Assembly (NCBI GenBank): GCA_965263035.1
Contig: OZ253580.1
Location: 1,376,001-1,440,000 of the forward strand
Origin: Acidobacteriota bacterium
GTDB taxonomy: Bacteria > Acidobacteriota > UBA6911 > RPQK01 > JAJDTT01
Length of the DNA stretch: 64,000 nt
Reading direction: 5' to 3'
Below are positions 6,653 through 36,166 of the stretch, in pieces. How positions within the stretch are numbered: position 1 is the stretch's first letter; the number at the start of each line of letters is the position of its first letter. A program made the translations under genes and the position numbers. The notes under the pieces were generated by a model. It ran no database searches. It was not told where the DNA came from and saw only the letters and a list, made by a program, of their open reading frames with translations.

Positions 6653-6784
6653 GTTGGTTCCTCCAGGTACTTCATCCGATTCCGATGCGGTGCGGTCGTC
6701 GAAGTATAGCAGCCCGTTGCGGAGCTTCGGCGTCGTGTGGAGGCGGCTTCCGCCACCGGCGGCCAAGGCTGCTAAGCTAGGGCG

Positions 6785-13852: not shown

Positions 13853-14054
13853 AACGATCGTCAGCAAGCATCCTCATCTTCCTCCCAAAGCTCAGGTAAG
13901 ACCGGATCGGGACCGTCCGGGACGAGGGAGCATGCAGACGTGGGAAAGTTCGTCTTCGGAGGATATCATGGGCGTCTCATGGCGTATTCGGATCCTTGGA
14001 AGCGGTGCATCACGGCGGCATAGTAGACTGGGGCGAACAGGCGCGGAACGAGAT

Positions 14055-15119: not shown

Positions 15120-15126
15120 GGGCAGG

Positions 15127-16083: not shown

Positions 16084-16103
16084 GACCAGGAATGGAGAGT
16101 TTC

Positions 16104-18548: not shown

Positions 18549-18620
18549 GGAATAGAGGAAAGCAGGAAAGAGAAAAGCTCCCCCACCGGCCCGGTCCGGC
18601 GGACGCCCGGTAGAAAAAGG

Positions 18621-18693
18621 GTAGGAGCGCCGGTTTCCAACCGCCGAACTCCGGTGGAGCATGGAGGAATGGGCGACTGGAAGTCGCCCCTCC
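18621..18693. repeat. REP/REPIN-like palindromic doublet
   Basis: GTAGGAGCGCCGGTTTCCAACCGCC ... GGCGACTGGAAGTCGCCCCTCC: two imperfect palindromes in inverted arrangement, intergenic. Confidence 0.6.
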
Positions 18694-18782
18694 TTGTTTC
18701 TTAGAAGAGTGAAGAATGGCGGGTCGTTGACGCGTAGCGGGCCGCGGGCCGGTGGGGAAATTTCTAACGGGATAACGAATCA

Positions 18783-19841: not shown

Positions 19842-19880
19842 CCGGACCGGTTCCTTCCTGTCCGCTCCGGTAGATTCGCC

Positions 19881-20801
19881 ATGGGCCTGATGGATTGGAT
19901 CAAGGCAGCCGACTACGAAGCGGCCCTGCCCACCATTTCGAAGCTGCCCCGCACTCTGGCCTACGGCTTGGCCGATTTGCGGGGAAGATTGCTGACCTAC
20001 ACGCGCCGGGACTCCTTTGCCTGGGCCTCGCGCAACGTCGAGTCCGTTTTTCCCCACTTCGATGCGGGTGAGCGCCGGCGGATCGTCATCGGCCACTACC
20101 AGGTCGAATCCCGCGACACGATGGAGGCGTTTTGGTATTCCAAGCCGCTGAGCCATCTCCAATCCTTCGTTCGTTGCACCGGGCTGGACACCCTCCGGGA
20201 AGCCGCATCCTCCGGGAACGGCGTTCTCCTTTTTTCCAGCCACATGGGGAGTACCGGCCTCTTCCTCGTCTTCGCCGGCAAGAGCGGAGTCCCCATGAAC
20301 ATCGTCGCACGGTCCATCGAGCCCGAAGACAATCCCCTGCACCCCGCGCTGCTCCGCTACAGCAGGAAGCGGGTCCGTTGGATCGAAACGGCCATCGGGC
20401 ATCCCCTTCTCATAACCGGACGCGGGAACTACTCCCGGCTGGTGGAGAAGCTTCGAGCCGGCGGGGTCATCATGATGCTGATCGATGTCTTGCCCAACCT
20501 GGTCAACCCGAAATACACGACGGAGGTCACGTTCTTCGGCCGGCGGGCCTGGTTCCCCAACGGCATCGCCAGCCTCTTCTTCACCACCGGATCCCGCCTT
20601 TTTCACTGGAGGATCCACAGAAACCAGAAGACGGGATACCAGGAGATCGAGATCTCCGAATTGACCGATTCTTTTCGGCCGGCCGCCGACCGGGCGCAAT
20701 TCATGCAAAAGCTGGTGGGACTGCTGGAACAGGACATTCGCCGGTACCCCGATCACTGGCTGAGCTGGGACTCGTTGAGGCACTACTACCGGAAACCGTA
20801 A
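19881..20801 (+). CDS. Lipid A lauroyl/lysophospholipid acyltransferase-like protein
   Basis: GVLLFSSHMG, MLID, VTFFG, IRRYPDHWL.W (LpxL-like). Confidence 0.8.
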   Translation: MGLMDWIKAADYEAALPTISKLPRTLAYGLADLRGRLLTYTRRDSFAWASRNVESVFPHFDAGERRRIVIGHYQVESRDTMEAFWYSKPLSHLQSFVRCTGLDTLREAASSGNGVLLFSSHMGSTGLFLVFAGKSGVPMNIVARSIEPEDNPLHPALLRYSRKRVRWIETAIGHPLLITGRGNYSRLVEKLRAGGVIMMLIDVLPNLVNPKYTTEVTFFGRRAWFPNGIASLFFTTGSRLFHWRIHRNQKTGYQEIEISELTDSFRPAADRAQFMQKLVGLLEQDIRRYPDHWLSWDSLRHYYRKP

Positions 20802-20936
20802 CGCCAGGAGTCCAATGCGCCGTCCCCGGCTCCATTTCGGGTGTCCCCTTCGACCCGTCTCCCGCGCTTTCCGGAACGAATCGTCCGGCCGGTCCGTATT
20901 TGCTGAGAGACCGGTTCATTGACGGAAAGAGGCACG

Positions 20937-21368
20937 ATGACTCGATGGATGGCCCTGGACGTAGGCTCCAAGCGATGCGGGGTTGCCGTGACCGATCCGC
21001 TGAAGCTGACGGCGCGTCCACTGCTCACCTTCGAACGGGAGAGCCTGAAGGGGGACGTCGAGAGGCTCATCGGACTCATGCGGGAATACCGGGTGGAGAG
21101 ACTGATCGTGGGGCAACCCCGGCATCTCAGTGGCCGGCCCAGCCCCATCGAACAGGCCGTCATTCCCCTGGTGTCCCGATTGCGTGGACAGGCGATGGTT
21201 CGAGTAGAGTGGATGGACGAACGCCTGTCGACCAAGGAGGCCGAATCGGTCATGCGGGAGCTGGGAATCCCTGAGCACCTGCGGCGACAGAAGAAGGACG
21301 AGTTCGCGGCGGCAGTGATTCTGAAATGGTATCTGGAGGAGAGGGGATCTCCCGGATTCCCCGGGTGA
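20937..21368 (+). CDS. ruvX: Pre-16S rRNA nuclease / Holliday junction resolvase-like RuvX
   Basis: ALDVGSKRCGVAVTD, IVGQP, DERLST, DEFAAAVIL. Confidence 0.95.
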   Translation: MTRWMALDVGSKRCGVAVTDPLKLTARPLLTFERESLKGDVERLIGLMREYRVERLIVGQPRHLSGRPSPIEQAVIPLVSRLRGQAMVRVEWMDERLSTKEAESVMRELGIPEHLRRQKKDEFAAAVILKWYLEERGSPGFPG

Positions 21369-22363
21369 TTCGCGGACTGACGATCGCGATCCTGATTCTG
21401 GCGGGGAGCGCTCTGGCCGCGGTCAACTGGTGGGAGTCTCGCGTCAGTGAACCTCATCTGGGGCGTTCGACGAAAAACCGGCTTCTGACCGTTCCCTTCG
21501 GGTCGTCGGTGAGAAGCATCGGCCAACTGCTCCAGGGCTCGGACATCATTCGGTCCGACCTCATATTTGCAGCCTATGTCCGCATCAGCGGTCCCGATCC
21601 GCTCCAGGCTGGAGAATACCTTTTCGAGAATCCCATCAGCCTGACCCAAGTGGTGCAGATACTGAGGGAGGGCCGGGTTCACCACTACCGCATCACGATC
21701 CCTGAAGGATTGACCATGGATGAGGTCATCGGCCGTTTCGTCCAGGAGGGATTGGGACAACAGCACGAGTTGGAGCCTCTGACCGGGCGTACGGACCTGC
21801 TGGGCGGCCTGGACCCGGAGGCCACGGACCTGGAGGGCTATCTCTTCCCCGACACCTACTATTTCACTCGGTCGGACCAGGAGTTGACGTTGGTCTCCAC
21901 ACTGGTGACCCGTTTCAGGGAGGTCTGGAACTCCCCGCGGCAGAAGCGCACCGAAGACCTGGGTCTCACCGTTCGGGAGGTGGTGACACTCGCCTCGCTG
22001 ATCGAGAAGGAGACGGCTCTCCCTTCGGAGCGGCCTCTGATCTCCGCCGTTTTTCACAACCGGCTCCGGCGAAACATCAAGTTGGATTGCGACCCCACCG
22101 TCATTTACGCCATCCGCAAGACCGGTGAATACGACGGCGTGCTACACCAGAGCGATCTGGCCCTGGACTCTCCCTACAACACCTATCTCTACGCGGGCCT
22201 CCCTCCCGGCCCCATCGCCAACCCCGGGACCGCTTCCATCGATGCGGCACTGAGTCCGGCGCCGGTCAGGCACCTCTACTTCGTATCCAAGAACGACGGC
22301 AGCCACGTCTTCTCCACCAGCTACCGGGAACACCGGCGGGCCGTACGCCGGTACCAGCGCTGA
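21365..22363 (+). CDS. mltG: Endolytic transglycosylase MltG
   Basis: LQAGEY, TIPEG, LEGYLFPDTY, LASLIEKE, SPYNTY..GLPPGPIANPG; GTG start overlaps the ruvX stop. Confidence 0.96.
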   Translation: MIRGLTIAILILAGSALAAVNWWESRVSEPHLGRSTKNRLLTVPFGSSVRSIGQLLQGSDIIRSDLIFAAYVRISGPDPLQAGEYLFENPISLTQVVQILREGRVHHYRITIPEGLTMDEVIGRFVQEGLGQQHELEPLTGRTDLLGGLDPEATDLEGYLFPDTYYFTRSDQELTLVSTLVTRFREVWNSPRQKRTEDLGLTVREVVTLASLIEKETALPSERPLISAVFHNRLRRNIKLDCDPTVIYAIRKTGEYDGVLHQSDLALDSPYNTYLYAGLPPGPIANPGTASIDAALSPAPVRHLYFVSKNDGSHVFSTSYREHRRAVRRYQR

Positions 22364-22450
22364 TTCGCATCTCGGAAAACCGAATCACGGCCTCCAATTG
22401 GTTCAGCAGTGCGCCCCGGGCTGATAGACTGTGAGCCGGGAACAGCCGGT

Positions 22451-23017
22451 ATGGGACGTAAGCTGGTCTGGACGTCATTGACCCTCTTGGCTCTGGCCGC
22501 GGCGCAGATTGATGCGCAAAAGAGATTCGAACCTCCGATGCGCCTGGGCGTCCCGTTTCCGGCGGCGTGGAAGGCCATGCTGGAAGTCCTGCAAGGCCAG
22601 AAATGGAACCTGGTCAAGAAGGACAGGGGAAGGGGCGAGATCCTGACCGGCTACCGGGAATACATGTCGGGTCCCTTGACGGCAAAACATCTCGACAAGA
22701 TCGGAGTCCGGCCCCGGCTGCCCGACGGGGAGTGGGTTCGGGTCCGCTACCGTTACGATCTGTCGGTCAGTCTGATCCGTGAACGTCAGACGGTGGTTAC
22801 CGTCGACAGCGACATCCAGGCGCTCAAACGCGATTTTCTGGGACGGGAGGAGTGGGTCGAGATCGATTCCACCGGGCGGTTGGAAAAACAGTTGCTGACC
22901 GCATTCGGGCAAGCCCTCTACGGGGCCGACTTCTCCCTGGACAAGCGCCGCAAGGGTTTTCTGGGACTGCCCCCCATTGGGGAAGGCCCCACTCCTGCGA
23001 AGCCGCCGGGCAATTGA
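22451..23017 (+). CDS. Hypothetical exported protein
   Basis: Signal peptide, coding-like codon pattern, upstream TGATAGACT promoter-like site. Confidence 0.65.
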   Translation: MGRKLVWTSLTLLALAAAQIDAQKRFEPPMRLGVPFPAAWKAMLEVLQGQKWNLVKKDRGRGEILTGYREYMSGPLTAKHLDKIGVRPRLPDGEWVRVRYRYDLSVSLIRERQTVVTVDSDIQALKRDFLGREEWVEIDSTGRLEKQLLTAFGQALYGADFSLDKRRKGFLGLPPIGEGPTPAKPPGN

Positions 23018-23159
23018 GAGGAGAGAGACGGCAGACGCCGGGGCGGCCTTGTGAACGCCCGTTAGCGCCGGCAACCGGTCATCCGCCGGCAAACCCGTTC
23101 ATCGCGATACCGCGGCGAACGGACGGCTCGAAGACTTTCCCACGGACTTCTGAATTCCA

Positions 23160-23828
23160 ATGGATCATCCCGTCCTTCGAATCGTAGATTTTCCCGTCCA
23201 GGTCGGCCTCTGGGTCTTTCTCGTCTCTTTTCTGGTTTTCCTGCTGGTGGTCCGAGCTCGCATCCGCGCGCGGAAATTCAGTCTCAAGGATTACTTCAGG
23301 GAGGAGTTCGATCGATACTACCGAGAGAAACTCGAGGAGACCTCCAGCAGGACGCGCCGAAAAGAATCCTGGACCGCCACCCTGAACGAGTACCGCATCG
23401 TCTTCCAGATCATGCTGCTTTCCATCCTGTTGGCCGTCGGGTCCTTCGTGGGCGTGAGCTTCGTGCCCATGCCCTATCTCCAGAACTGGACGGGGGTCGA
23501 GTCCGTCGAAACGGAGCCCCTGAGAATGGTCGCTCTCTCCTATGATCGATTCTATACGGGATTCTCCCTCAAGGGGGAGATCTGGAATCAGGGGCAGATT
23601 CCTCTGCAGGGACTCTCGGCGCGCGTCAGGATCTGGGGACGGGATGACATGCCGCTGGAAGAAATCCTGGCCCAGATCGAGCCGGCCGTGCTGAATCCCG
23701 AGTCTTCGGGCAGTTTCGGCATGAAATACTCGCAGAAGTCCCCTTCCCTGCTCTACGGCTACGAGGTGGCATTCGTCGATTCCGAAGGTGTCGAGACGCC
23801 GCACATCCGGGGATTCGATGCCCCCTGA
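23160..23828 (+). CDS. Hypothetical membrane protein with C-terminal Ig-like (FxLYD-like) domain
   Basis: Two TM segments followed by GEIWN...L.P..S.SF; overlaps the ABC gene start. Confidence 0.7.
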   Translation: MDHPVLRIVDFPVQVGLWVFLVSFLVFLLVVRARIRARKFSLKDYFREEFDRYYREKLEETSSRTRRKESWTATLNEYRIVFQIMLLSILLAVGSFVGVSFVPMPYLQNWTGVESVETEPLRMVALSYDRFYTGFSLKGEIWNQGQIPLQGLSARVRIWGRDDMPLEEILAQIEPAVLNPESSGSFGMKYSQKSPSLLYGYEVAFVDSEGVETPHIRGFDAP

Positions 23829-25581
23829 GCCAGCCGGAGCCGATCGAGAGTGGGCTTTGGCCACCTTGATCCCCTACCTGAGGCAGTACCGCGCCCGTAT
23901 CGCCGTCGGCGTGGCGATGGTCCTCATGACCAACGTGGCCGTGGTCATCACGCCCAAGGTCCTGGGATCGGCCGTCGACGATCTCTTCAGCGGAGGTGAC
24001 ACCCGACTCGTGCTCGGCTACGCCGCCCTGGTGTTGGCCCTGAGCTGCGCCGAAGGCCTCTTCCGCTACCTGATGCGGTGGATCCTCATCGGCGTCTCGC
24101 GCCGGATCGAATTCGACCTGCGCAACGACCTCTTCCGGCACCTGCAGCGACTGACGCCCTCCTTCTACCAGCGGCATTCCACGGGAGACGTGATGGCGCG
24201 ATCCACCAACGACCTGAGCGCCGTTCGAATGGTGCTGGGACCGGGCATCATGTACTCGGTCAACACCCTGTTCATGGTCATCCTTACCGTCCCCATACTG
24301 ATTCGGACCGATGCCGGCTTGGCTCTTCTCACCTTGGCTCCCCTCCTGCTCGTCTCCTACTGCGTCAAGTTCTTCGGCAGGAAGATCCACCAGAGATTCG
24401 AGAAGATCCAGGAACAGTTCTCGATGCTCACGACGCTGGTTCAAGAGAACGTCTCGGGGATTCGAGTCGTCAAGGCCTACAATCAGGAGTCCGCCTTCGT
24501 GAGCCGGTTTCGAGACGCCAACCGGGAATACATGCAGCGAAGCATGGCCCTGGTCAAAGTCTGGGGGATCTTTTATCCCCTGCTGGCTTTTCTCCTGGGC
24601 CTCTCGGCCGTCATTCTCCTCTGGTACGGCGGACGGCAGGTCGTGGACGGGGCTCTGTCTCTCGGCGATCTGGTCTCGTTCATTTTCTATCTGGCCCGAC
24701 TGACCTGGCCCACCATCGCCCTGGGATGGGTCATCAACACCTTCGAGCGCGGATCGGCTTCGATGGGAAGAATCAACCGGATCCTGGCGACCCAGCCGGA
24801 CGTGCTGGACGAGGGCCGCCTTCCTGTCGAGGCCATCAAGGGACGCGTGCAGGTCAAGAACCTCACCTTTTCCTACGATGAAACTCCGGTCTTGAAAAAC
24901 CTGGAATTCGAGCTGCCCGCCGGAACCACCCTTGCCATAGTGGGCAGCACCGGCTGTGGAAAATCCACCCTGGTGCAACTGCTCTGCCGCCTCTACCCCG
25001 TGCCTCGGGACCGGATCCTCATCGATGGAACGGACGTCAACGACATTCCCCTGATCCAGCTGCGAAGAAGCATCGGCTGTGTTCCCCAGGACACCTTCCT
25101 CTTTTCCGAATCGATCCGGGACAACCTGACCTTCGGAGTCCCGGAGGCCCCCGACCACCCCATCCGGGAGGCTGCGCACACCAGCAACATCCTGGCTGAG
25201 ATCCAGAGCTTCCCCGACCAGATGTCCACCTTCGTCGGAGAGCGAGGGTTGACTCTTTCAGGTGGCCAGAAACAGCGGATGACCATAGCGAGAGCGCTCC
25301 TGACCGACCCCAAGATCCTGATCTTGGACGACTCCCTGTCCAGCGTGGATACATACACGGAGGAGGAGATATTGAAGCGGCTCGCTCCCATCATCGCGGG
25401 CAGAACCACCATCCTCATCTCCCATCGCATCTCGACGGTCAAGGCGGCAGACCAGATCCTGGTGATGGATCGAGGCCGAATCGTTCAGCGGGGCCGCCAC
25501 CGGGAGTTGCTCCAGGTCGCGGGTCCCTACGCCGAAATGCACCGGAAGCAGTTGCTGGAACAGGAGTTGGGAATCGCATGA
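23818..25581 (+). CDS. ABC exporter, fused TMD-NBD (MdlA-like subunit)
   Basis: Walker A GSTGCGKST, LSGGQKQR, degenerate Walker B ILDDSLSSVD. Confidence 0.95.
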   Translation: MPPEPAGADREWALATLIPYLRQYRARIAVGVAMVLMTNVAVVITPKVLGSAVDDLFSGGDTRLVLGYAALVLALSCAEGLFRYLMRWILIGVSRRIEFDLRNDLFRHLQRLTPSFYQRHSTGDVMARSTNDLSAVRMVLGPGIMYSVNTLFMVILTVPILIRTDAGLALLTLAPLLLVSYCVKFFGRKIHQRFEKIQEQFSMLTTLVQENVSGIRVVKAYNQESAFVSRFRDANREYMQRSMALVKVWGIFYPLLAFLLGLSAVILLWYGGRQVVDGALSLGDLVSFIFYLARLTWPTIALGWVINTFERGSASMGRINRILATQPDVLDEGRLPVEAIKGRVQVKNLTFSYDETPVLKNLEFELPAGTTLAIVGSTGCGKSTLVQLLCRLYPVPRDRILIDGTDVNDIPLIQLRRSIGCVPQDTFLFSESIRDNLTFGVPEAPDHPIREAAHTSNILAEIQSFPDQMSTFVGERGLTLSGGQKQRMTIARALLTDPKILILDDSLSSVDTYTEEEILKRLAPIIAGRTTILISHRISTVKAADQILVMDRGRIVQRGRHRELLQVAGPYAEMHRKQLLEQELGIA

Positions 25582-27371
25582 TCGAGTACGACCAGGAAGA
25601 GATCCTGGGTCGAGTCTACGACCGGCGATTGGCCCGGAGGATGCTGGGATACCTGGCTCCCTACCGCTGGGTCGTGGGCGCATCGGTAGCGTTGCTTCTG
25701 GTGGTGTCGGCCCTGCAACTGGCGGGTCCGCTCCTGACGCTGATCGCCATCGACCAACACATCAGAATCGGCGACCGGAACGGTCTCACGCTTCTGGCAC
25801 TGCTTTACCTCGGGCTCCTGATTCTGCAATTCGGCTGCTCGTTCGCACAGACGTGGCTGATGAACTGGACCGGACAGCGGGTCATGAACGATCTGAGGGT
25901 CCAGATCTTCAGTCACGTCCAGACCCTGCACGTCGGCTACTTCGACAGGAATCCCGTGGGCCGGCTGATCACCCGCATGACCAACGACGTGGACGTCCTC
26001 AACGAGCTCTTCACGGCCGGCGTCGTGAGCATCTTCGGGGACATCTTCCTGTTGGGCGGCATCGTAACGGTCATGCTCTGGACGGATTGGCAACTGGCCC
26101 TGATCAGCTTGTCGGTCCTGCCCCTCATTTTCCTGGCCACCATGATCTTCAAGATCAAGGTTCGCGGCTCCTATCGATGGGTCCGGGCCTGCGTGGTCAA
26201 GATCAACGCCTTCCTTCAGGAGAACATCACCGGCATGCCGGTGGTCCAGATCTTCGTTCAGGAGGACCGCAAGTTCGACCAGTTCCGGGAACGGAACCGG
26301 GAACACCTACAGGCCAATATTCAATCCATCTTCTACTACGCGGTATTCTATCCCGTGATCAACTTGGTGGGGGCCCTGGCCATCGCCCTGATTCTCTGGT
26401 ACGGAGGGGGCCGCGTGCTGGACGGCGTCCTGACCCTGGGCACGCTGGTGGCCTTCCTTCAGTATTCGGAACGCTTCTTCAAGCCCATCAGCGACCTGAG
26501 CGAAAAGTTCAACATCCTGCAGAGCGCCATGGCCAGTTCGGAGCGGATCTTCAAGCTCCTGGACACACGTGCCGAGGTTCGGCCTCCGTCGGAACCCACA
26601 CCGTTGCCGTCAGGCGGCGGCGCCATCGAGTTTCGCAACGTGTCGTTCGCCTACAAGGAGGACACGCCGGTCCTGCGGAACCTGAGCTTGAGGATCGCCC
26701 CCGGCGAACGAGTGGCCATCGTGGGACCGACCGGTTCGGGAAAAACCACGCTGATCAACCTGATCTGCAGATTTTACGACGTCCAGGAAGGAGACATTCT
26801 CATCGACGGAATCCCCATCGCCGACCTGGACCCCGGGGAATTGAGGCGAAGGATGGCGGTGGTGCTCCAGGACGTCTTTCTCTTCAGCGGCACCATCGAA
26901 GAGAACGTCCGGCTGTGGAGGGCTTCCATCGACCGGCCACGGGTCACGGATGCGGTGCGCCACGTCAACGCCCTGGGCTTCATTCAGGAGAAGCCCAAGG
27001 GACTCGACTCGCCGGTTACGGAAAGGGGCACATCGTTGTCCGTGGGTCAAAGACAGCTACTGGCCTTCGCCCGGGCCCTGGCCCACGATCCCAGAATCCT
27101 GATCCTGGACGAGGCCACTTCGTCGGTCGACACGGAGACCGAGATTCTCATCCAGGACGCCTTGAGCACGCTCATGGAAGGGAGAACCTCCATCGTCATC
27201 GCCCACCGCCTTTCCACCATCCAGAACTGCGACCGTATCGTGGTCCTCCGCCAGGGAAGAATCGAGGAAGAAGGCACCCATCAGGAGTTGCTCAAACTGA
27301 GGGGCCTCTACTACAAGCTTTACCAACTCCAGTATCAGGATGAGGAACGAACCGTGGGGAGTGAGAAGTGA
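25578..27371 (+). CDS. ABC exporter, fused TMD-NBD (MdlB-like subunit)
   Basis: GPTGSGKTT, LSVGQRQ, ILDEATSSVD; ATGA overlap with its partner, indicating a heterodimer. Confidence 0.95.
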   Translation: MIEYDQEEILGRVYDRRLARRMLGYLAPYRWVVGASVALLLVVSALQLAGPLLTLIAIDQHIRIGDRNGLTLLALLYLGLLILQFGCSFAQTWLMNWTGQRVMNDLRVQIFSHVQTLHVGYFDRNPVGRLITRMTNDVDVLNELFTAGVVSIFGDIFLLGGIVTVMLWTDWQLALISLSVLPLIFLATMIFKIKVRGSYRWVRACVVKINAFLQENITGMPVVQIFVQEDRKFDQFRERNREHLQANIQSIFYYAVFYPVINLVGALAIALILWYGGGRVLDGVLTLGTLVAFLQYSERFFKPISDLSEKFNILQSAMASSERIFKLLDTRAEVRPPSEPTPLPSGGGAIEFRNVSFAYKEDTPVLRNLSLRIAPGERVAIVGPTGSGKTTLINLICRFYDVQEGDILIDGIPIADLDPGELRRRMAVVLQDVFLFSGTIEENVRLWRASIDRPRVTDAVRHVNALGFIQEKPKGLDSPVTERGTSLSVGQRQLLAFARALAHDPRILILDEATSSVDTETEILIQDALSTLMEGRTSIVIAHRLSTIQNCDRIVVLRQGRIEEEGTHQELLKLRGLYYKLYQLQYQDEERTVGSEK

Positions 27372-27392
27372 GATCAGGCCGGAGGGCTAGCT

Positions 27393-29857
27393 CTGCCCTA
27401 TACCCACAAATAGTGCTGGACAAACAAGAATGCCTGTCGTAGTCTCCACGACATGGCAGTTCAGAACCAGATCAAGCGCACCTTGAGCCGAGAGTTGGAT
27501 CGTTTGCACGCCGTGATGAGGCGGGAGAAGTTCGCCCACCGGACGGCGCTGGCGGACCGGGTCTGCTCGGAGTTTGGATTTCACGATGCCCGAGGGCGGG
27601 CGCAACGGAGCGGCTGCCTGAAGGCGCTCCGGGAGCTGGAGGCGGGCGGACGGATTCGTCTGCCGACGCCGCGACGGCGGGTGAAACATTGCGGGCCCCG
27701 AGGACTGGGCCGTGCGGTGCCGGAGCCGGTCGGGGTGCCCGAGACGGTGGACGGCGTGCGGGAGCTGGAGTTGATCGCGGTGGAGACGGGTCCGCAACGA
27801 GCGCTCTGGAACGAGTTGATGGCGCGAGAGCATCCACGGGGCGCGGGGCCGTTGGTGGGTGCTCAACTACGCTATCTGGTGGGCTCGGCGCACGGCTGGC
27901 TGGGGGGCTTGGGGTTCGGGGCGGCGGCGTTGCGGTTGCGGGACCGGGACCGCTGGATCGGATGGGATGAGGAACAACGCCGGGCGCACCTGCACCGGGT
28001 GGTGGGGCTGAGCCGGTTTCTGATCCGTCCGTCAGTGAGGTGTCGTAATCTGGCCTCCCGGGTGCTGGGGGAGGTGTTGCGGCGGCTGGGTCCGGAGTTC
28101 CAGGCGCGCTACGGCTACCGTCCCTGGCTGGTGGAGACCTTCGTGGAGACGGCTCGCCACGATGGGGCCAGTTTGCGCGCCACGAACTGGAGGGTTCTGG
28201 GGCAGACGCAGGGTCGAGGCCGGCAAGATCGGGCGCACCGGGGTGCGGAGACGAGCAAGGCGATCTATGGGTATGAGTTGTGCCGGGATTGGCGTCGGCG
28301 GTTGGGGGTGGGACCGGCGCCGAGGCGGGGAGTGGAACCGATGTCGGAGGGCGAGGGACTGGAGGGAGCGGGCTGGGCTCAGCAGGAGTTGGGCGGGGCG
28401 CCGCTGGGAGACCGGCGCTTGAGTCGGCGACTGGTGGAGAGTGCGCACCGTCAGGCGCAGGAGCCGGGGCGGGCGTTCACGGGAGTGGCGCGGGGCGATC
28501 CGGCGGCGGTCAAGGGATACTACCGGCTGATCGACCAGCCGGAAGCCTCGGCGGTGACGGTGTCCAACATCCTGGCCCCGCACCGGGAGCGGACCCGGCA
28601 GCGGATGCAGGGGCAGCGGACGGTGCTGTGCATCCAGGACGGGAGCGATCTGAACTTCACGCGGCACGGCCGGTGTGAGGGACTGGGGGTGATCGGGCGC
28701 AACCAGACGGGAGCGACGGCGCGGGGACTGCATCTGCACGCGACGCTGGTGGTGAGTGAGACGGGGCTGCCGCTGGGGGTGTTGCGGGCGAAGCTGGACG
28801 CGCCGAAGCCGGGACCGGTGGCCACGCGGAAAAAGAAGAAGACGTATCGCTGGATCGAGGGACTTCGGGACTGCGCCGAGGTGTCGCGGTCCCTCGACGG
28901 GGTGCGGGTGGTCAGCGTGGTGGACCGGGAGGCGGATTTTTTCGCACTGTTCGCCGAGCAACGAGCGTCTCCGGAGGTGGAGTTGCTGGTGCGTGCGAAG
29001 CAGGATCGGGTGCTGAAGCGGAAGACCCGGGCGAAGGCGGCCGGGAAAAGCGGGGATCCGGACCAGGAGCAGAAGCGGAAGCTGTTCGGGCGCCTGCGAT
29101 CGGCGCCGGTGCGGGCCCGGATGCTGCTGGAGGTGAAGCGTCAGAGTGCGCGGATCAAGGCCAGCAAGCAGGCGGCCCGCCCGCGGCGGCTGGCGCGGGT
29201 GGCACGGATGGAACTGCGCTACGAGACCCTGACGATTCCGGCGCCGCGCGGGAACCCAACCGGCATCCCGTCGCTGAGACTGTCGGTGGTGCACGCGCGG
29301 GAGGTCGCGCCGCCGGCGCAGGGGAAGCGCCTGGAATGGTTCCTGCTCACCACCCTGCCGGTGACCGATGTCGAGACGGCGCAGCAACTGCTGAGATGGT
29401 ATGCCCTGCGCTGGCGGGTGGAGGATTATTTCCGGGTGCTCAAGACCGGATGCCGGGTGCAACAGCTCCAGCACCAAACCGCCGAACGTCTGAAACGGGC
29501 CATCGCCATGCACGCCGTCATCGCCTGGCGGATCATGCTGATGACGCTGTTGGGGCGAGAGGACCCGGATCTGCCGGCGCAGTTGCTGTTTTCCGATCTG
29601 GAAATCCGGGTCCTGGGGGCGTTTGCCGCGTCGCGACGATACCCACCGCCGGAAGACCTGGGGGCGGCCGTGCTCGTGCTGGCCCGCCTGGGAGGATATC
29701 TGGCTCGTAAACACGACCCCCCACCCGGGCATCAACTGCTGTGGCAGGGCTACGTCACGCTTTACGGCATGTGTCTGGGCTTCGCTTTACGAGAAGAAAC
29801 ATGAACGAAACCAGACCCAGGCTAATGTGCCCTGTGCAATATGTGGGTAAAGGGCAG
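27393..29857 (+). mobile_element. IS4-family (IS50/Tn5-like) insertion sequence, copy 1
   Basis: TIRs CTGCCCTATACCCACAAAT / ATATGTGGGTAAAGGGCAG; 8-bp TSD GGCTAGCT at 27385-27392 and 29858-29865. Confidence 0.95.
27453..29804 (+). CDS. Transposase: DUF4338 (DruA-like) N-terminal domain plus Tn5-like DDE transposase
   Basis: Tn5-like motifs GDRRL, IQDGSDL, DREADF, Y..RW.VE.YF..LK, LARLGG. N-terminal RD.WIGW, SRFLI, NLASRVL, LVETFV, GRGRQD. Confidence 0.92.
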   Translation: MAVQNQIKRTLSRELDRLHAVMRREKFAHRTALADRVCSEFGFHDARGRAQRSGCLKALRELEAGGRIRLPTPRRRVKHCGPRGLGRAVPEPVGVPETVDGVRELELIAVETGPQRALWNELMAREHPRGAGPLVGAQLRYLVGSAHGWLGGLGFGAAALRLRDRDRWIGWDEEQRRAHLHRVVGLSRFLIRPSVRCRNLASRVLGEVLRRLGPEFQARYGYRPWLVETFVETARHDGASLRATNWRVLGQTQGRGRQDRAHRGAETSKAIYGYELCRDWRRRLGVGPAPRRGVEPMSEGEGLEGAGWAQQELGGAPLGDRRLSRRLVESAHRQAQEPGRAFTGVARGDPAAVKGYYRLIDQPEASAVTVSNILAPHRERTRQRMQGQRTVLCIQDGSDLNFTRHGRCEGLGVIGRNQTGATARGLHLHATLVVSETGLPLGVLRAKLDAPKPGPVATRKKKKTYRWIEGLRDCAEVSRSLDGVRVVSVVDREADFFALFAEQRASPEVELLVRAKQDRVLKRKTRAKAAGKSGDPDQEQKRKLFGRLRSAPVRARMLLEVKRQSARIKASKQAARPRRLARVARMELRYETLTIPAPRGNPTGIPSLRLSVVHAREVAPPAQGKRLEWFLLTTLPVTDVETAQQLLRWYALRWRVEDYFRVLKTGCRVQQLQHQTAERLKRAIAMHAVIAWRIMLMTLLGREDPDLPAQLLFSDLEIRVLGAFAASRRYPPPEDLGAAVLVLARLGGYLARKHDPPPGHQLLWQGYVTLYGMCLGFALREET

Positions 29858-29859
29858 GG

Positions 29860-31299
29860 CTAGCTCGCGCCGCGGCCCCAGACTACGGCCGGTATGGTCT
29901 TGAGCAGAATCCAGAGATCGAGCTTCAAGGACCACTGGTCGATGTACTGGAGATCCAGCTTCATCCATTCCTGAAAGTCCAGCTCGTTCCGGCCGGAGAT
30001 CTGCCAGAGACAGGTGATGCCCGGCTTGACGCTCAGGCGCCGCCGCTGGCTCCGGGAATAGTGCCGGACCTCCTCGGGGAGCGGCGCCCGGGGGCCCACC
30101 AGGCTCATCTCGCCTCTCAACACGTTTGCCAGTTGCGGCAACTCGTCGATGCTGTACCTGCGCAGAATGCGTCCCAAGGACGTCACGCGGGGATCGTTGC
30201 GCATCTTGAACACCGGACCGTCCATCTCGTTGAGATGCCGGAGTTCCCGGAGCTGGTCCTCGGCCCCTTCGACCATGGTGCGAAACTTGACCAGCCGGAA
30301 CTCCCGGCCGTAGAGCCCGCGCCGAACCTGACGATAGAAGACCGATCCGGGTGAGGTGAACTTGATCAGAGCCATGATCAGGAGCATGAAGGGGGACGCC
30401 AGCGCCAGCAGAGCCGACGCCAGGACACAATCCATGATCCGCTTGACCACCAGGGCCACGCTCTGGTCCGGAGCCATGGAGAAGGTGATGAGGGGAAGCT
30501 CCTCCAGGAAATCGAGCGATAGCCTGGAGGCGGATGCGGGGAAGAAGTCGGCGGCGATCCGGGTCCGGATTCCGAGCTCCTCACACAGTTTCAGAACCTC
30601 CTGAAACTGGCGGTTGTCCTCGGGCTGAGCGTCCACGAATATGATCTCGTCCACGATCAGCCGGTCCATGACCAAGTCGGGAAGATCCTTGAGCGATCCC
30701 ACAATCCGTATCCCGGGGGCCTCGGTCCAGGTTTCTCCAGGCGCCAGATGTCCGACGACGTGGTAGCCCCACTTTCGGAACCGGACCAGCACCTCGCTGA
30801 CATGCTGGGCCCGGGAGTCGATTCCCACGACCAGGATCTTGACCTGATGGTGCTCGTTGACGTTCCGGGTCCTCAAGATCCAATGCAGCAGAATGCGGTT
30901 CAAGCCCAGAAAGAGACCGGAGAGTCCGATGAAATTGAAGAAAACGGGCCGGCTCACATCCAGGTCGAACACGAAGACGATGAAACCCACGGCAAGACCG
31001 GCGGCGCAGACGAAGCGGCCGATGCGGAACAGGTGCTGGGAGGCGGAGACCTGGTAGAAGCGAGAGTATTGTTGGGTCATCCGGAGGATGGGAATCCAAA
31101 TCGGCAACACGGCCAGCAGATAGACCAGGTAACGGGAATAGGGCAGCAGAACCGGATGGAATGCGGGCGCGATCAAGGCCGGCGCCAATTCCACCAGCAA
31201 GGATCGGGAGAAATAGGCCAGGGTCAAGGCCAGAAAGGCGACGGCGATGTCCGCCGCCTGAAGGAGGTTGCCGTAGACTTGAGACTGGCGATCGAACAT
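29860..31299 (-). CDS. Polyprenyl glycosylphosphotransferase (priming sugar transferase)
   Basis: KRIMD, KFRTM, DPRVT, SIDELPQL.NVL.GEMSLVGPR, KPGIT. Confidence 0.95.
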   Translation of the reverse strand: MFDRQSQVYGNLLQAADIAVAFLALTLAYFSRSLLVELAPALIAPAFHPVLLPYSRYLVYLLAVLPIWIPILRMTQQYSRFYQVSASQHLFRIGRFVCAAGLAVGFIVFVFDLDVSRPVFFNFIGLSGLFLGLNRILLHWILRTRNVNEHHQVKILVVGIDSRAQHVSEVLVRFRKWGYHVVGHLAPGETWTEAPGIRIVGSLKDLPDLVMDRLIVDEIIFVDAQPEDNRQFQEVLKLCEELGIRTRIAADFFPASASRLSLDFLEELPLITFSMAPDQSVALVVKRIMDCVLASALLALASPFMLLIMALIKFTSPGSVFYRQVRRGLYGREFRLVKFRTMVEGAEDQLRELRHLNEMDGPVFKMRNDPRVTSLGRILRRYSIDELPQLANVLRGEMSLVGPRAPLPEEVRHYSRSQRRRLSVKPGITCLWQISGRNELDFQEWMKLDLQYIDQWSLKLDLWILLKTIPAVVWGRGAS

Positions 31300-32069: not shown

Positions 32070-33702
32070 GGATCACCTGGTGGCCCATACAGAAGGGGTC
32101 GATCGTTTCCAACAGGCCATCGATGAACCCGGGTCCCTCTTCCATCAGGAACTGGTTGAAGTTGACGACCCGTTCCTGCAGCTTCTCCTCGGGATGAAGA
32201 CGGGTATGAAGATAGTCCAGATGACGGCCGGCGACGCGGTCGCGGTTTCGATAGTTTTCCAGAAATCGGTTCTCCACCCGGTCCATCTGATAAAAGACTC
32301 GCTTCCAAGCCCTGGGAACCATCCTGTCGAGACTCGGATCGACGCGGACAATGTCCCCCTGTAGCCGAGTCAGGCTCTCCCTGACCACTTCCGAGATCCG
32401 GTCGAACTCGTCCAGGACGTGCTTTGAAGCTCCTGTCCTGGCGACACGTTGGGTGATTCGGGAGGCGCCCAGGGTGAGCAGCTCGACCAGATCCAGCGAG
32501 TGCTTTTTCAGCAGCCGCTGGGACTTCCGGTCCACTACCGTTACCCCGACCCTGGGGAACACGCAGCACTGAATCTTCCAGTAGGGACTGATGGCGCCGA
32601 TCTGACTGAAGTAGGCGACCTCCGCCGGCCCTCCCACGTAAGCTACGGTAGGGAAAAGGTGGTCCTGAATGATGGGCCGCAACAAAACGTTGGGACCGAA
32701 CTCACCAACTCCGGTTCGTATCCGTTCCAGCAGCTCTTCCGGCCGCAGCCGGAGAGAGCGGCTACCGCGGCTCCAATAGGCTCCGGATCGGTACTCCAAC
32801 TTGTAACGCCGTCTCCCCTCGAGCCAGAAGAGGAGTGACTCTGAGCTGTCCACGGGCACCTGCACGCGGTGGCCATCCGCCTCCAGCTTCCGCCCGCGGG
32901 TCTGCAAGGAGCGGATCAGACGTTTCCGCTCCAGGACCGCCGTCTCGAAGACCTGTCTCAACGCGCCCTTGTATCCGGGTTGGAGCGCGTCGAAGAGAAT
33001 GAGCCCCTGGTTTCGAAAGAGCCGGGCGAGCCAACGGCCCTGGGCATCGGTAAAAGGCGTGCCGGGCGCGAAGGCCGATTCGAGGGTTCGAAGGATCGCT
33101 TCCTGACACTCGGAAGTGGGAGCGCCGTCCTGGAGCCTCTTCAGGGGATCACCCACCGATTCCAACGAAACCGTGCCCACCATGGTTGACGAAGGGGGGG
33201 AGGGACCGGAATAGTCCAGATGCAACAACGATCCCTGCGGACCGAAGAAGGCTGTGGAACGGGATTCCAGAAAATCAGAGTCATCGGAAGGAAGCCAGAA
33301 GACGGGAACCGCCGGACACCCCTGAGACTCCAGGACCCGGGCCAGGCTCACGGCGGTCAGCGCCTTGTAGACGGAGAGGGCCGGTCCGCCGAAGAGGCCC
33401 AGCTGTTGGCCCGTCACCACAGCCACGGTCCCCGAATCCCGCAGCTTCTCGATATTCTCGCCGGTGGAGGGCCCCGAGCCCACCCGGGCATTGAAATCGT
33501 GCAGCATCCGGACGAGACTCTCGCGGGGCAACCGGGAGTCCCGTCCCCGCGCGGCCTCGGCCCGTTGGCGCAGAGCCTCCGGGCTGGTGTGCGCCGGTCC
33601 GGCCGGATAGAGCGGTGAGACCCGGTCGAAATCGTGCAGATACTGGAGAAAAAGCCGACTCTGCCCCGGCAACCGGCGGCGGTCGAGACGCTCGACTCTC
33701 AT
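32062..33702 (-). CDS. bshC: Bacillithiol biosynthesis cysteine-adding enzyme BshC
   Basis: VVTGQQLGLFGGP, PVFW..DD.DF.E, PNVLLRP..QD..FPT.AYVGGPAEVAY, LQERV. Confidence 0.95.
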   Translation of the reverse strand: MRVERLDRRRLPGQSRLFLQYLHDFDRVSPLYPAGPAHTSPEALRQRAEAARGRDSRLPRESLVRMLHDFNARVGSGPSTGENIEKLRDSGTVAVVTGQQLGLFGGPALSVYKALTAVSLARVLESQGCPAVPVFWLPSDDSDFLESRSTAFFGPQGSLLHLDYSGPSPPSSTMVGTVSLESVGDPLKRLQDGAPTSECQEAILRTLESAFAPGTPFTDAQGRWLARLFRNQGLILFDALQPGYKGALRQVFETAVLERKRLIRSLQTRGRKLEADGHRVQVPVDSSESLLFWLEGRRRYKLEYRSGAYWSRGSRSLRLRPEELLERIRTGVGEFGPNVLLRPIIQDHLFPTVAYVGGPAEVAYFSQIGAISPYWKIQCCVFPRVGVTVVDRKSQRLLKKHSLDLVELLTLGASRITQRVARTGASKHVLDEFDRISEVVRESLTRLQGDIVRVDPSLDRMVPRAWKRVFYQMDRVENRFLENYRNRDRVAGRHLDYLHTRLHPEEKLQERVVNFNQFLMEEGPGFIDGLLETIDPFCMGHQVIHV

Positions 33703-33720
33703 GCGGCCGCCAGTTTAACC

Positions 33721-33764
33721 GAAAGTCCCGCGCGGCACCGGGACCGATGCCGCGCGGGACTCTC
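33721..33764. repeat. Hairpin related to a MITE-B end
   Basis: 17-bp arms GAAAGTCCCGCGCGGCA / TGCCGCGCGGGACTCTC; left arm resembles GAAAGTCCCGCGTAGCACCGAGACC at about 48733. Confidence 0.55.
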
Positions 33765-33870
33765 ATCAGGGACCTCCGGGAACAGAGTCCGCAGTGTCAT
33801 GCCCCTCGAGATGACCGACGACAATCGCCGGCATCTCCATGAGACGCAAGCCTTTTGGAGGGACGGTCTG

Positions 33871-34179
33871 TTACGGGCGCTTCGCCTTTTCCTCGGAAGG
33901 GGAGGAGGGGGCCTTGACCATGATCCGGTCCCTGAGCCTCAGAAAGGTCTTCTCTCCGATGCCACGGACGTTCATCAGATCTTCAATCCGCTTGAAGGCT
34001 CCGTTTTTCTCCCGGAACGTCACGATTCGTCTGGCGATTGACGGTCCGACGCCGGGGAGGGTGTCCAACTCTTCCACGGTCGCCTGATTCAGATCCAGCT
34101 TGTCCGCAGCCGCGGCATCCGGACACCAGAGCCAGGGCATGGCCATCAGCAAGGTCGAGAACAACAGAATCTTTCGCAT
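33871..34179 (-). CDS. comEA: ComEA-family helix-hairpin-helix DNA-binding protein
   Basis: Signal peptide, DLNQATVEELDTLPGVG, V.GIGEK; RBS GGAGG. Confidence 0.93.
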   Translation of the reverse strand: MRKILLFSTLLMAMPWLWCPDAAAADKLDLNQATVEELDTLPGVGPSIARRIVTFREKNGAFKRIEDLMNVRGIGEKTFLRLRDRIMVKAPSSPSEEKAKRP

Positions 34180-34203
34180 GTGCACCTCCTTTGGTTTGGG
34201 TTT

Positions 34204-34852
34204 GGGGCTTATATATCTGACTTGACATCAGCACACAGTTCCGGCGCCACGCTCGGCCCACTGGCCCACGTTTCGGCACCCAGGGCAAGAACCCCCGCCC
34301 TGAGAATGTTCAGGGCTGCATTGTGGTCCCTGTCCATTCTGAGATCGCAGGCTGAGCAGCGATACGTCTCGCTCCTTCCCGGTCGATACCGGGCACCAAA
34401 ACGGTGACAGTCCTGCGACGTGTTTTGTGGGTTGACTTCCACGAACTCCCGACCGGCCCACTCTGCCTTGTATCGGAGCCGGGGATACCCAGGATTCTCT
34501 CCAGCCTTGCAGCGCCGGAAGAAGGCCTGGAAGGCTCGCTCCTGGCGAAACCACATCCCCCTTTCGGCCTTGACGGCAATGGCCCCGAGCCCGTCCGGAT
34601 CGTTTCTCCGCTGCTGCGTCAAACCCCGCATCTGGTCATATAGAGTCACGGATTTCTCTTCCTTCTCCCAGGTGTCCTTACGCTCCTCCAGGGCGGAGTT
34701 GTAGAGGCGGTTCAAAACCGATCTGATCCAATCCAGATGCCGAAACCCTCCCTTGGACATCTTGGCTCGGCACTGAAATATTGTGTGAACCTTCATAGTG
34801 AATGCGAAAACACATCTCTAGGACGATCTGTCAAGTTAGATAAATGAGCCCC
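34204..34852 (-). mobile_element. 649-bp non-autonomous TIR element carrying a tnpB remnant (IS1595-like ends, inferred)
   Basis: 24-bp TIRs GGGGCTTATATATCTGACTTGACA / TGTCAAGTTAGATAAATGAGCCCC (3 mismatches); 8-bp TSD TTGGGTTT at 34196-34203 and 34853-34860. Confidence 0.88.
34209..34796 (-). pseudogene. tnpB: TnpB with a large in-frame internal deletion (195 aa)
   Basis: N-terminal LYN.ALEER...AF.AFFRR.K.GE.PGYPR joined directly to LRYKAEWAG..VNP..TSQ.C...CSAC..DRDHNAALNI. RuvC-I, bridge helix and RuvC-II are absent. Confidence 0.88.
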
Positions 34853-34912
34853 TTGGGTTTCCTATCTGAGCCTAACGCTCCAGATGGAAAAAACGCGAAG
34901 CGGAGCGGCGGT

Positions 34913-36166
34913 TCACCCGCCAACTGGTGCGTGGACGCCGTTGCAGAGGTAGTCGAAAATTTCGTAGTTCCGGGCTCCGTGGGCCGCCCGGGTCCGGTAC
35001 TCGTCGCTCAAAGGCTCGGAAAGCAGCATGGGGACCATCTCTTCATGGCGTCCGCCGTGGGACCTTAGAGGTTGGTTCAGGACGCTCAGATCATGGTCGG
35101 CAGGGGTCCTGCCGATGACGGCGCCGGCGTCCGCCATCACGACCAGATCGCCGATGCGGTCGGCCGGCAAGTCCAGTTCTCTCGACGCCGCAGTGCGGTC
35201 GTAGACTTCGTCGATGCCGGGCAGCCGGCGGATCCAAGCGGCCACGGCAGCGGTCTTGAGCGGTTCGGTCACGTGCACCATGACCGCCGAACCCAGAGAG
35301 CCGTGGTGAACGACGTAGGGGTCCGTGATGGGACAGACCACTCGGTTTCCCTCTCCGAAACGATCTCTCAGCAGAGATTCGAGATAGACGACGTTGGGGC
35401 TCCCGTCGGGCCGGGTTTTGGCATTCATTCCGTGGTCAGCCGTCACTCCAACCCGGGCGCCGGTCTCCAGCAGCGCGCCGATCTCCCGGTCCAGCGCCTG
35501 GTGGAAATCCAGTGACTCGGAAGACTCGGGAGGGTACTTGTGCTGCATGTAGTCAGTCAGGGAGAGGAAGAGAAAATCGACCATATCCCTCTGGATGAGT
35601 CTGGCCCCGGCCGCCAGCACGAAGAGGCTGGCGTCGGCGCTGTAGATCTCCGGCTGTGGCCTGCCCACCAGGTCTTCCAGGTTCGCGATGCCGTGGGTCT
35701 CGACGGAGGCGACGGCGGCTCGCTCGGAAGAAAAGGCGATTCCGTTCAGGCCTTTCGTGAGCAGGTCACGGAGTTTCTCCTTGGCCGTCACCATAGCCAC
35801 CTTTCTGCCGGCACGGGACGCCGCCGCCAGAATGGTGTCGCACCGGACGTAGCGGGATGAGTTCATCATCAGTTCCCGGCCGGTCCGCGGATCGAGAAAG
35901 AAGTTGCCGCTGATACCAGTCACGGACGGGGGGACCCCGGAGACGATGGCAGCATTGTTCACGTTGGTGAAGGAGGGGAGAGCGCCCCGGACCACGGACT
36001 CGAATCCACCTGCGGCCAGACCGTCCAGATGAGGCATGCGGCCCCGACGCCTGGAGACCTCCAGGTACTCGGGCCCGCAGCCATCGATGCAGACCACCAC
36101 CAGGGGCTTGGCCGGAGGCCGGTATTCCCGCCCGTTGACCCGGAAAGGTGTGGTGCTGATCCGCAT
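34913..36166 (-). CDS. phnA: Phosphonoacetate hydrolase
   Basis: VVVCIDG, PSFTNVNN, TDYMQHK, TADHGM, PITDPYVVHH, LRSHGG. Confidence 0.93.
   Translation of the reverse strand: MRISTTPFRVNGREYRPPAKPLVVVCIDGCGPEYLEVSRRRGRMPHLDGLAAGGFESVVRGALPSFTNVNNAAIVSGVPPSVTGISGNFFLDPRTGRELMMNSSRYVRCDTILAAASRAGRKVAMVTAKEKLRDLLTKGLNGIAFSSERAAVASVETHGIANLEDLVGRPQPEIYSADASLFVLAAGARLIQRDMVDFLFLSLTDYMQHKYPPESSESLDFHQALDREIGALLETGARVGVTADHGMNAKTRPDGSPNVVYLESLLRDRFGEGNRVVCPITDPYVVHHGSLGSAVMVHVTEPLKTAAVAAWIRRLPGIDEVYDRTAASRELDLPADRIGDLVVMADAGAVIGRTPADHDLSVLNQPLRSHGGRHEEMVPMLLSEPLSDEYRTRAAHGARNYEIFDYLCNGVHAPVGG

Follow-up and report, generated by a model that had tools for sequence, protein, structure and literature searches.

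How does a tnpB gene come to lie inside a transposon with inverted ends and a duplicated target, and what could its product do there? TnpB is the ancestor of Cas12, and its usual carriers leave no scar on excision and insert beside a fixed motif that is at the same time the target-adjacent motif (TAM) of the nuclease. The question is raised by an element of 649 bp in a stretch of 64,000 bp from an Acidobacteriota genome (assembly GCA_965263035.1, contig OZ253580.1, positions 1,376,001 to 1,440,000 of the forward strand), called the window throughout. An earlier note on this DNA had described a tnpB between terminal inverted repeats and proposed that a family of DDE transposons has co-opted TnpB. 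How TnpB functions in cut-and-paste, target-duplicating DDE transposons is also a point that a 2026 review, in the portion available, raises explicitly (PMC13565253). The answer that we favour, with a probability of about 0.72, is that the element derives from a tnpB cassette with IS1595-type ends that would be moved in trans, would encode an omega-RNA at its 3' end, would use the dinucleotide G|A (the bar marks the boundary between flank and duplication) as TAM, or as part of it, and would home to empty sites.

The element occupies positions 34204-34852 of the window and has 24-nt inverted ends that are complementary at 21 of 24 positions (88%). A repeat search of the 1.7-kb neighbourhood (33700-35400) gave these arms as the longest inverted pair, and an exact 8-mer touches each of them directly, an 8/8 agreement at a fixed position for which we calculate a chance of ~1.5e-5. 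The features of the insertion are as follows.

34196-34203, unstranded: target-site duplication at the tnpB 3' end, TTGGGTTT (on the tnpB strand AAACCCAA)
34204-34227, unstranded: terminal inverted repeat at the tnpB 3' end, GGGGCTTATATATCTGACTTGACA
34829-34852, unstranded: terminal inverted repeat at the tnpB 5' end, forming the inverted pair with the former
34853-34860, unstranded: target-site duplication at the tnpB 5' end, TTGGGTTT

The site is empty in four genomes of the same genus (G012, G011, G007 and G008), where the flanks are contiguous through a single 8-mer, TTGGGTTT in G012, G007 and G008 and TTGGGTTG in G011. The 649 bp are therefore an insertion that duplicated its target, and a chance repeat, which was considered as an explanation of the inverted arms, is ruled out by these empty alleles. 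Both the 24-bp repeats and the exact 8-bp duplication had been claimed in the earlier note, which also proposed the comparison with an empty site, and all three held. Among the contigs of four sequencing runs (X1 and X2, metatranscriptomes used as assembled contigs, and X11 and X13, of unrecorded kind) there was none with a joint that skips the element, which is no proof against empty alleles there. Positions 34204-34852 are a real transposon insertion.

The gene that it carries is incomplete. The open reading frame (ORF) on the minus strand matches the Pfam domain Cas12f1-like_TNB (2.6e-20), and its TAA stop codon (34209-34211) falls inside the left inverted repeat, as had been pointed out. 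The description of the gene as a tnpB is right as to the domain and wrong as to its completeness, for the 195-aa product joins, in frame, residues 1-108 to residues 300-388 of a 388-aa full-length protein.

34209-34796, minus strand: truncated tnpB, an N-terminal part joined to a zinc-ribbon/RuvC-III part, 195 aa
34473-34478, unstranded: deletion junction, placed by split matches; the contigs of all four runs break at 34472/34473

With residues 109-299 deleted, the window copy does not have the complete RuvC Asp-Glu-Asp triad and zinc finger: RuvC-I and RuvC-II are gone, two RuvC catalytic residues among them, and one zinc-finger Cys is replaced by Phe. Since RuvC-I and RuvC-II are lost, the protein cannot be a nuclease. 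Used as a query across the genome, the element gave two blocks that lie ~575 bp further apart in three other copies; the internal deletion amounts to ~580 bp against the full-length copies, and 589 bp of a cassette in a related genome (L032) are absent from the window copy. Both ends and the 3' ~270 nt are kept. Judged from these alignments, the window copy is an internally deleted, nuclease-dead derivative of a tnpB-only cassette of ~1.23-1.25 kb, and taken alone it is an ordinary decayed derivative.

Full-length relatives with the same ends occur in the window genome (G000) as copies B (1228 bp), C (1243 bp) and D (1379 bp), which together with the window copy represent subfamily S1, one of five subfamilies (S1 to S5) obtained from an alignment of 23 full-length copies. 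Three of the four S1 copies (window, B and D) have exact 8-bp duplications, the sequences of which are all different. The protein of copy B (P0001) is a 388-aa TnpB with the Pfam domains OrfB_IS605 and Cas12f1-like_TNB. It aligns to ISDra2 TnpB (8EXA) at 9.6e-28 and has both the RuvC triad (Asp, Glu and Asp aligned at the three motifs) and a zinc finger of the form CxxC...CxxC; for ISDra2 we assume the customary residue numbering in this alignment. Relatives of P0001 at 62-91% identity are present in many copies in metagenome-assembled genomes labelled Acidobacteriota or Aminicenantes. The family was found in 6 of 15 genomes of the taxonomic family of the window genome, all of one genus, and 17 of 24 loci of the relatives have inverted ends and a duplication with 7-8/8 identity. 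Further full-length tnpB copies bounded by such repeats, the search for which had been suggested as a check, are known in the window genome and five relatives. Cassette termini start with GGGG(A/C)TTATA, and the 8-bp duplications vary in sequence. Copies I and J of the window genome lie at different sites with 100% identity over 1244 bp, which makes their movement recent; for copy J no clear orthologue of an empty site was found, because its flanks belong to a paralogous family. A scan of metagenomes returned only distant TnpBs (<=46% identity) and no added insertion sites.

Three full-length copies with intact ends, copy C (G000:C1:1977082-1978324), L031 and L040, have no target duplication, which suggests that they arose by recombination between copies and hence that the family possibly mediates rearrangements. 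A contig of a SAR202 metagenome-assembled genome (L053) carries, at positions 5578-6959, a TnpB with 44% identity to P0001. The inverted ends around it are different and 17 nt long (GAGACGATTTCACAAAT), a 7-bp direct repeat accompanies them, and they may form a further shell of the duplication-making kind about a related tnpB.

In order to find elements with the same ends, the window genome was scanned for the terminus GGGRNTTATAWA, revealing a second set of eight near-identical 1762-bp copies and several diverged ones, all with 8-bp duplications at their flanks. The 1762-bp elements have the ends GGGGATTATATACGAAAGTGCC, and they encode a 316-aa protein with the domains DDE_Tnp_IS1595 (4.4e-38) and Zn_ribbon_IS1595. 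The IS1595 transposase gave 18 tblastn hits in the window genome, further subfamilies included. These IS1595 elements share the cassette termini GGGGATTATATA..., and termini of the form GGGG(A/C)TTATATA are common to cassettes and transposase-bearing elements of the same genome. The ends of S2 cassettes agree with those of T1-type IS1595 elements at 23 of 27 positions, and ends like those of S1 and S5 are present on IS1595 elements of a sister genus. IS1595 elements with the same termini and 8-bp duplications, which the earlier note had proposed to look for genome-wide, do exist. The cassettes themselves have IS1595-like terminal repeats and, at 23 insertions, 8-bp duplications with 7-8/8 identity. 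A DDE_Tnp_IS1595 transposase with an N-terminal zinc ribbon is encoded on the separate elements and not by the cassettes, which we therefore class as IS1595-family passengers and not as insertion sequences (IS).

None of 110 loci, and none in the window genome, combines tnpB and the transposase in one element. Because no two-gene element was found, the link to the transposase rests on shared ends, shared duplication length and co-residence; and because the two genes were never found together, the arrangement argues for mobilisation in trans and not for a composite transposon. The cassettes are probably non-autonomous passengers moved in trans by IS1595 DDE transposases, for which copies I and J, identical at different sites in a genome with eight matching IS copies, are indirect support. 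The proposed co-option by a DDE family is in agreement with the shared ends and 8-bp duplications, and is to be amended in that the transposase is separate and no composite element was found.

As tnpB is the usual cargo of the IS200/IS605 family and Y1_Tnp is matched weakly at two places in the window genome (39 and 36 bits), an ordinary IS200/IS605-type (IS1341-like) element moved by Y1 was also considered, in which the repeats would be end hairpins and the 8-mer a preferred target. This is scarcely credible, since the duplications differ between copies and are single in empty alleles, the cassette ends match IS1595 ends, and the Y1_Tnp matches lie far from every tnpB copy. The cassettes do not conform to the IS200/IS605 pattern of a Y1 transposase without inverted ends or duplication; that this family makes no duplication and has no inverted ends is also stated in the available text of the 2026 review (PMC13565253).

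Some further observations concern the IS1595 elements. The 1762-bp element (G000:C1:1740263-1742024 and seven near-identical copies) has ~700 bp beyond its transposase gene, and this tail contains no tnpB or RNA remnant. An ORF of 146 aa in the tail has restriction-endonuclease-like domains (NA-iREase1 5.6e-8, Mrr_cat 1.1e-6), and the sequence upstream of it, in another frame, resembles by eye an N-terminal motif of DNA methyltransferases; the tail ORF may be the remnant of a passenger gene. One IS1595 copy (G000:C1:976200-979730) measures 3531 bp instead of 1762 bp and has an inner sequence with a 479-aa ORF. It adjoins a diverged IS1595 pair at 972968-975668, and the whole region 972968-979730 looks like a nest of insertions. 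An IS1182-like transposase ORF (~500 aa; named from a reading of the sequence) in G000:C1:1999865-2001940 lies ~530 bp from a 24-mer that resembles a cassette end. This 24-mer (2001917-2001940) was rejected as a cassette end, with 5 mismatches and no inverted partner within 3 kb (<=7 mismatches), and is taken as a chance match or a solo remnant.

What the cassettes have at their 3' end is a structured RNA module. RNAalifold, run on the last ~200 nt of the tnpB strand of 17 copies, gave a consensus structure of 47 pairs, with 98% of the cells paired against 35-48% in slid-partner controls, 11 pairs with compensatory change and none of 500 shuffles scoring as high, although pair statistics and structure come from the same alignment, which favours the structure. 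The three 3'-most helices (34243-34302) hold the bulk of the covariation. The terminal hairpin is subfamily-specific, differing in sequence and keeping its shape, and takes its 3' arm from the inner portion of the inverted repeat; the repeat at 34204-34227 holds both this arm and the tnpB stop codon. A fold comparison revealed no equivalent hairpin at the other element end. The last ~100 nt, inverted repeat included, are shown by these comparisons to be capable of folding into a conserved structure, and we infer that this structure is an omega-RNA scaffold. [quoted passage not shown] Rfam gave no family match for the cassette RNA, and a promoter and terminator scan found nothing on the tnpB strand.

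34204-34302, minus strand: core omega-RNA-like scaffold, with a hairpin at 34210-34237 and helices at 34243-34280 and 34281-34302; further predicted pairs extend to 34416
Contig depth at 34208-34295 (3' end): X1 14,040-30,590; X2 6,230-6,620; X11 40-82; X13 521-637
Contig depth of the tnpB 5' part: X1 92; X2 107; X11 14.5; X13 133
Contig depth of the neighbouring gene: X1 6.35; X2 5.1

The ratio of 3' end to tnpB 5' depth is 150-330x in X1, ~60x in X2 and 3-6x in X11 and X13, in depths that carry neither strand nor transcript ends, are summed over all family copies and organisms, and may include DNA carry-over. One RNA-library contig (depth 6.35) spans 33900-34245, across the repeat into the flanking gene, and further contigs connect the element end with flanking sequence of other copies. 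These data are good evidence of abundant RNA from the cassette 3' end and weak evidence of read-through past the repeat. A transcript running past 34204 on the minus strand had been predicted; the accumulation on the 3' end and the crossing of the repeat agree with it.

The same contig bears on a different idea, in which the 195-aa fusion would have been kept for a new role, for instance as a regulator, guided by RNA or binding DNA, of the downstream HHH_3 gene. The deletion preserves the reading frame and the ORF is open, the following gene has its ribosome-binding site just downstream of the element, and the contig runs from the element into that gene. Nevertheless, the deletion form was seen only in the window genome, a zinc-finger cysteine is mutated, the closest relatives have no insertion, and features of exapted TnpBs, namely conserved orthologues and a fixed guide, are absent, so that we consider such a role very improbable. 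As for the gene itself, it is a 104-aa HHH_3 (ComEA-like) gene at 33871-34203 on the minus strand, with its start codon 18 bp from the cassette end. Contig sequence is continuous from 34245 into it, and the insertion may drive or disturb its expression.

For the analysis of the insertion sites we used 23 cassette insertions with a recognisable duplication, from six related genomes and oriented by tnpB, 21 of them by script and two (the window copy and L062) by hand. Left out were seven full-length copies, of which C, L031 and L040 have no duplication, L039 and L045 have degenerate ends, and L033 and L050 have ends that the script did not find, and also the partial copies E, F, G and K. On the tnpB-5' side, G precedes the duplication (position -1) in 22 of the 23, the first duplicated base is A in all 23, and the next two are A or T in 23/23 and 22/23, respectively; G at -2 (15/23) and A at -5 (14/23) are also frequent. 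G|A therefore spans the boundary at 22/23 insertions on this side against 5/23 on the opposite side (Fisher 3.8e-7). A shared motif in the 5' flanks, which the earlier note had suggested seeking by alignment, is present on that side alone. Inspection of four of the left-out copies by eye showed G|A in the equivalent position in L040 alone, and its lack in the other three is expected if their junctions were rearranged.

34861-34865, minus strand: candidate TAM, flank motif ATAGG, directly 5' of the duplication on the tnpB strand
34184-34203, minus strand: predicted 20-nt guide region, the flank read outward from the element end, as TnpB biology would have it

The IS1595 elements differ in this respect. 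G|A is found on 12 of the 52 sides of 26 transposase-bearing elements (8/26 and 4/26; Fisher 1.9e-9 against the cassettes), and on either side at only 11 of the 26 sites, so that a choice of orientation alone cannot explain the cassette motif. The target preference of IS1595 is roughly symmetric, S|WWW...WW|S, and the sites of the cassettes are a subset of it that is confined to one side. Some of the cassette pattern, namely W at +1 to +3 and S at -1, thus derives from the transposase. Could the whole of it be the target preference of the moving transposase, the cassettes being plain passengers and TnpB with its RNA having a role unrelated to the site? No transposase element with exact S1 ends was found in the 15 genomes, which leaves room for this explanation. 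However, two near-identical ends should give a symmetric preference, and all five subfamilies have the motif on the tnpB-5' side only, whether their tips are both GGGGC, both GGGGA or mixed. In addition S2, the ends of which match a T1-type IS, has the motif, whereas T1-type copies have G|A on 6 of 18 transposase-5' sides (manual count). A purely transposase-derived motif is therefore unlikely.

We infer instead that the one-sided G|A is the TAM of these TnpBs, or part of it; its invariant A may count with the TAM and not with the guide. In the empty allele, the motif precedes the duplication and flank that the RNA would carry as guide. In the occupied element, the repeat end precedes the guide match at one junction, and the other junction matches only 8 nt. 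For 7 copies, 16-nt predicted guides were searched against the genome (<=2 mismatches), and the exact match was found only at the own junction of each, where the repeat end, and not the motif, stands in front of it. In the window copy the predicted guide region overlaps the ribosome-binding site and start codon of the HHH_3 gene. The guide would begin with the duplication at 34196-34203, unless the first bases of this 8-mer are part of the TAM or scaffold. The earlier note had the guide start with the duplication and a TAM in the other flank; the motif does lie in that flank, and by analogy with Fanzors the first duplicated bases may belong to TAM or scaffold. We found no published description of a one-sided flank motif for IS1595-type tnpB cassettes.

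One site was used twice. In G009, a full-length cassette of another subfamily occupies the same boundary as the window copy, with the same flank and orientation (G009:C1 around 5789050-5790320, L032 and L147; window side 34853-34870). Its duplication is the local 8-mer of that lineage, which differs from that of the window because of a 6-bp indel in a T-rich tract. The site is empty in the closest relatives of both genomes, and the two insertions, in two species, are independent. The coincidence is suggestive, with 0.02-0.2 such cases expected by chance in a rough estimate that depends on the number of permissive sites.

This recurrence, together with a motif that is near invariant (22/23) and so exceeds what weak survivorship might be expected to give, could mean that TnpB, alone or with its RNA, takes part in target choice, with TAM binding steering DDE integration in one orientation, loosely like Cas12k in CRISPR-associated transposons. 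Against this, every copy takes its guide from the flank it already has, which cannot direct it to a new site, only one site among the 23 coincides, and retention by homing gives the same pattern with known TnpB biochemistry; target choice by TnpB is quite improbable. Taken more broadly, the idea that TnpB sets where the DDE transposon ends up, either by such TAM-bound steering or by homing that retains nearly only TAM-adjacent insertions, is doubtful. If it were true, a loose-target cut-and-paste transposon would have gained a one-sided, nuclease-defined site rule, and the family would show how TnpB can be ported to duplication-making prokaryotic transposons, a step thought to precede the Fanzors.

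The account that we favour, a trans-moved cassette maintained by homing, would proceed as follows. IS1595 DDE transposases would move the tnpB cassettes in trans. Transcription past the repeat would add a guide taken from the duplication and flank, and only the empty allele would set a TAM beside a full guide match. TnpB made by intact copies would cut empty or precisely excised sites, and recombination repair after the cut would restore the cassette. Insertions without the motif would gain nothing and be lost, or would never arise. The window copy would make no nuclease and would retain both ends and the RNA module.

Several results weigh against this account, beginning with the lack of any two-gene element at the 110 loci and the composite nature of the contig depths. 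S1 shares only its outer 12-13 nt with the IS1595 copies of the window genome, and the best match of its inner repeat (17/24, manual count) is to an element in another genus. A pattern search of the 15 family genomes (<=2 mismatches) found S1-type ends on no transposase element; they occur only on tnpB copies, in G000, G011 and G012. Co-occurrence is imperfect as well: G007 has 12 transposase hits and no tnpB of the cassette family, and G010 has six tnpB genes (five with one in-frame stop) and no transposase hit at E<=1e-80, a pattern that may indicate that cassettes and drivers can each be lost. The motif is based on 23 insertions from six related genomes, and its informative part is short for a TAM. 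Finally, DDE excision leaves a break anyway, so the benefit of homing is not obvious, as the 2026 review remarks in its available text (PMC13565253).

The locus and its relatives form a compact natural system, with autonomous IS1595 elements beside the tnpB cassettes that match them within a single genome, recently moved identical copies, exact empty sites, abundant end RNA and a candidate TAM from 23 sites. With these materials the homing model can be tested with a handful of constructs. The cassette family offers a direct handle on TnpB homing alongside duplication-making transposases, and its TnpB is small (388 aa) and has a candidate TAM that is G-rich, not T-rich.

Comparison with known systems places the cassettes between several of them. 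IS1341-type tnpB-only elements of the IS200/IS605 family likewise have a single tnpB, a 3' omega-RNA and a flank-derived guide, and the cassette protein is a typical TnpB (ISDra2, 9.6e-28); unlike the cassettes, which sit at varied AT-rich 8-mers, they have no inverted repeats or duplication and insert 3' of a fixed tetra- or pentanucleotide. Mobile insertion cassettes and miniature inverted-repeat transposable elements (MITEs), such as MIC231 of IS231, consist of transposase-less DNA between IS ends and are moved in trans. The tnpB cassettes resemble them, with the 649-bp window copy as a further miniaturised derivative, and differ in that the cargo is a maintenance module (RNA-guided nuclease and RNA) and not a housekeeping or resistance gene.

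Members of IS1595 usually make 8-bp duplications and have a zinc finger and a DDE domain (Siguier et al. 2009, as summarised in the part of PMC8101967 that was available). The cassettes share with them the 8-bp duplications, the inverted ends starting in G residues and partners with zinc-ribbon and DDE_Tnp_IS1595 domains; unlike these insertion sequences, they have no transposase, and carry tnpB together with an RNA module extending over one of the ends. For Fanzors, the 2026 review reads the 5' duplication as belonging to the TAM and places the 3' duplication within the scaffold of the RNA (PMC13565253, available text). Fanzor1 and Fanzor2 of eukaryotic DDE transposons (Mariner/Tc1, hAT and others) also combine a TnpB homologue with inverted repeats and target duplications, and the TAM reading of their 5' duplication parallels the cassette motif that straddles the flank/duplication boundary. 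In contrast, the cassettes are prokaryotic, have a small TnpB (388 aa) and a transposase on separate elements, and their duplication has 8 bp of varying sequence in place of a fixed TA or TTAA, which allows only its first bases to be constant.

The closest precedent is the set of six TnpB branches (DDE-1 to DDE-6) linked by Altae-Tran et al. (2023, PMC10691335, main text) to DDE transposases, with inverted terminal repeats and the tnpB 3' end near one transposon end; solo TnpBs between the same ends imply mobilisation in trans there. That main text names only IS630, for DDE-6, and does not mention IS1595 (the supplements lay outside the search), and the available text of the 2026 review lists ISL2, IS630 and IS1031 as DDE families with TnpB (PMC13565253). 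The IS1595 type may be one of the unnamed DDE branches. Like these TnpBs, the cassettes have tnpB inside inverted repeats with its 3' end near the transposon end (stop codon 5 nt off), and solo copies with the ends of transposase-bearing elements; in contrast to them, no composite element was found here, and the texts available contain no one-sided motif or empty-site evidence. The idea of DDE-linked TnpB is thus already published (PMC10691335, main text), and the cassette architecture is a rare arrangement and not a new one. What is added here is the partner IS in the same genome, the exact empty sites, the RNA abundance at the cassette end and the one-sided motif.

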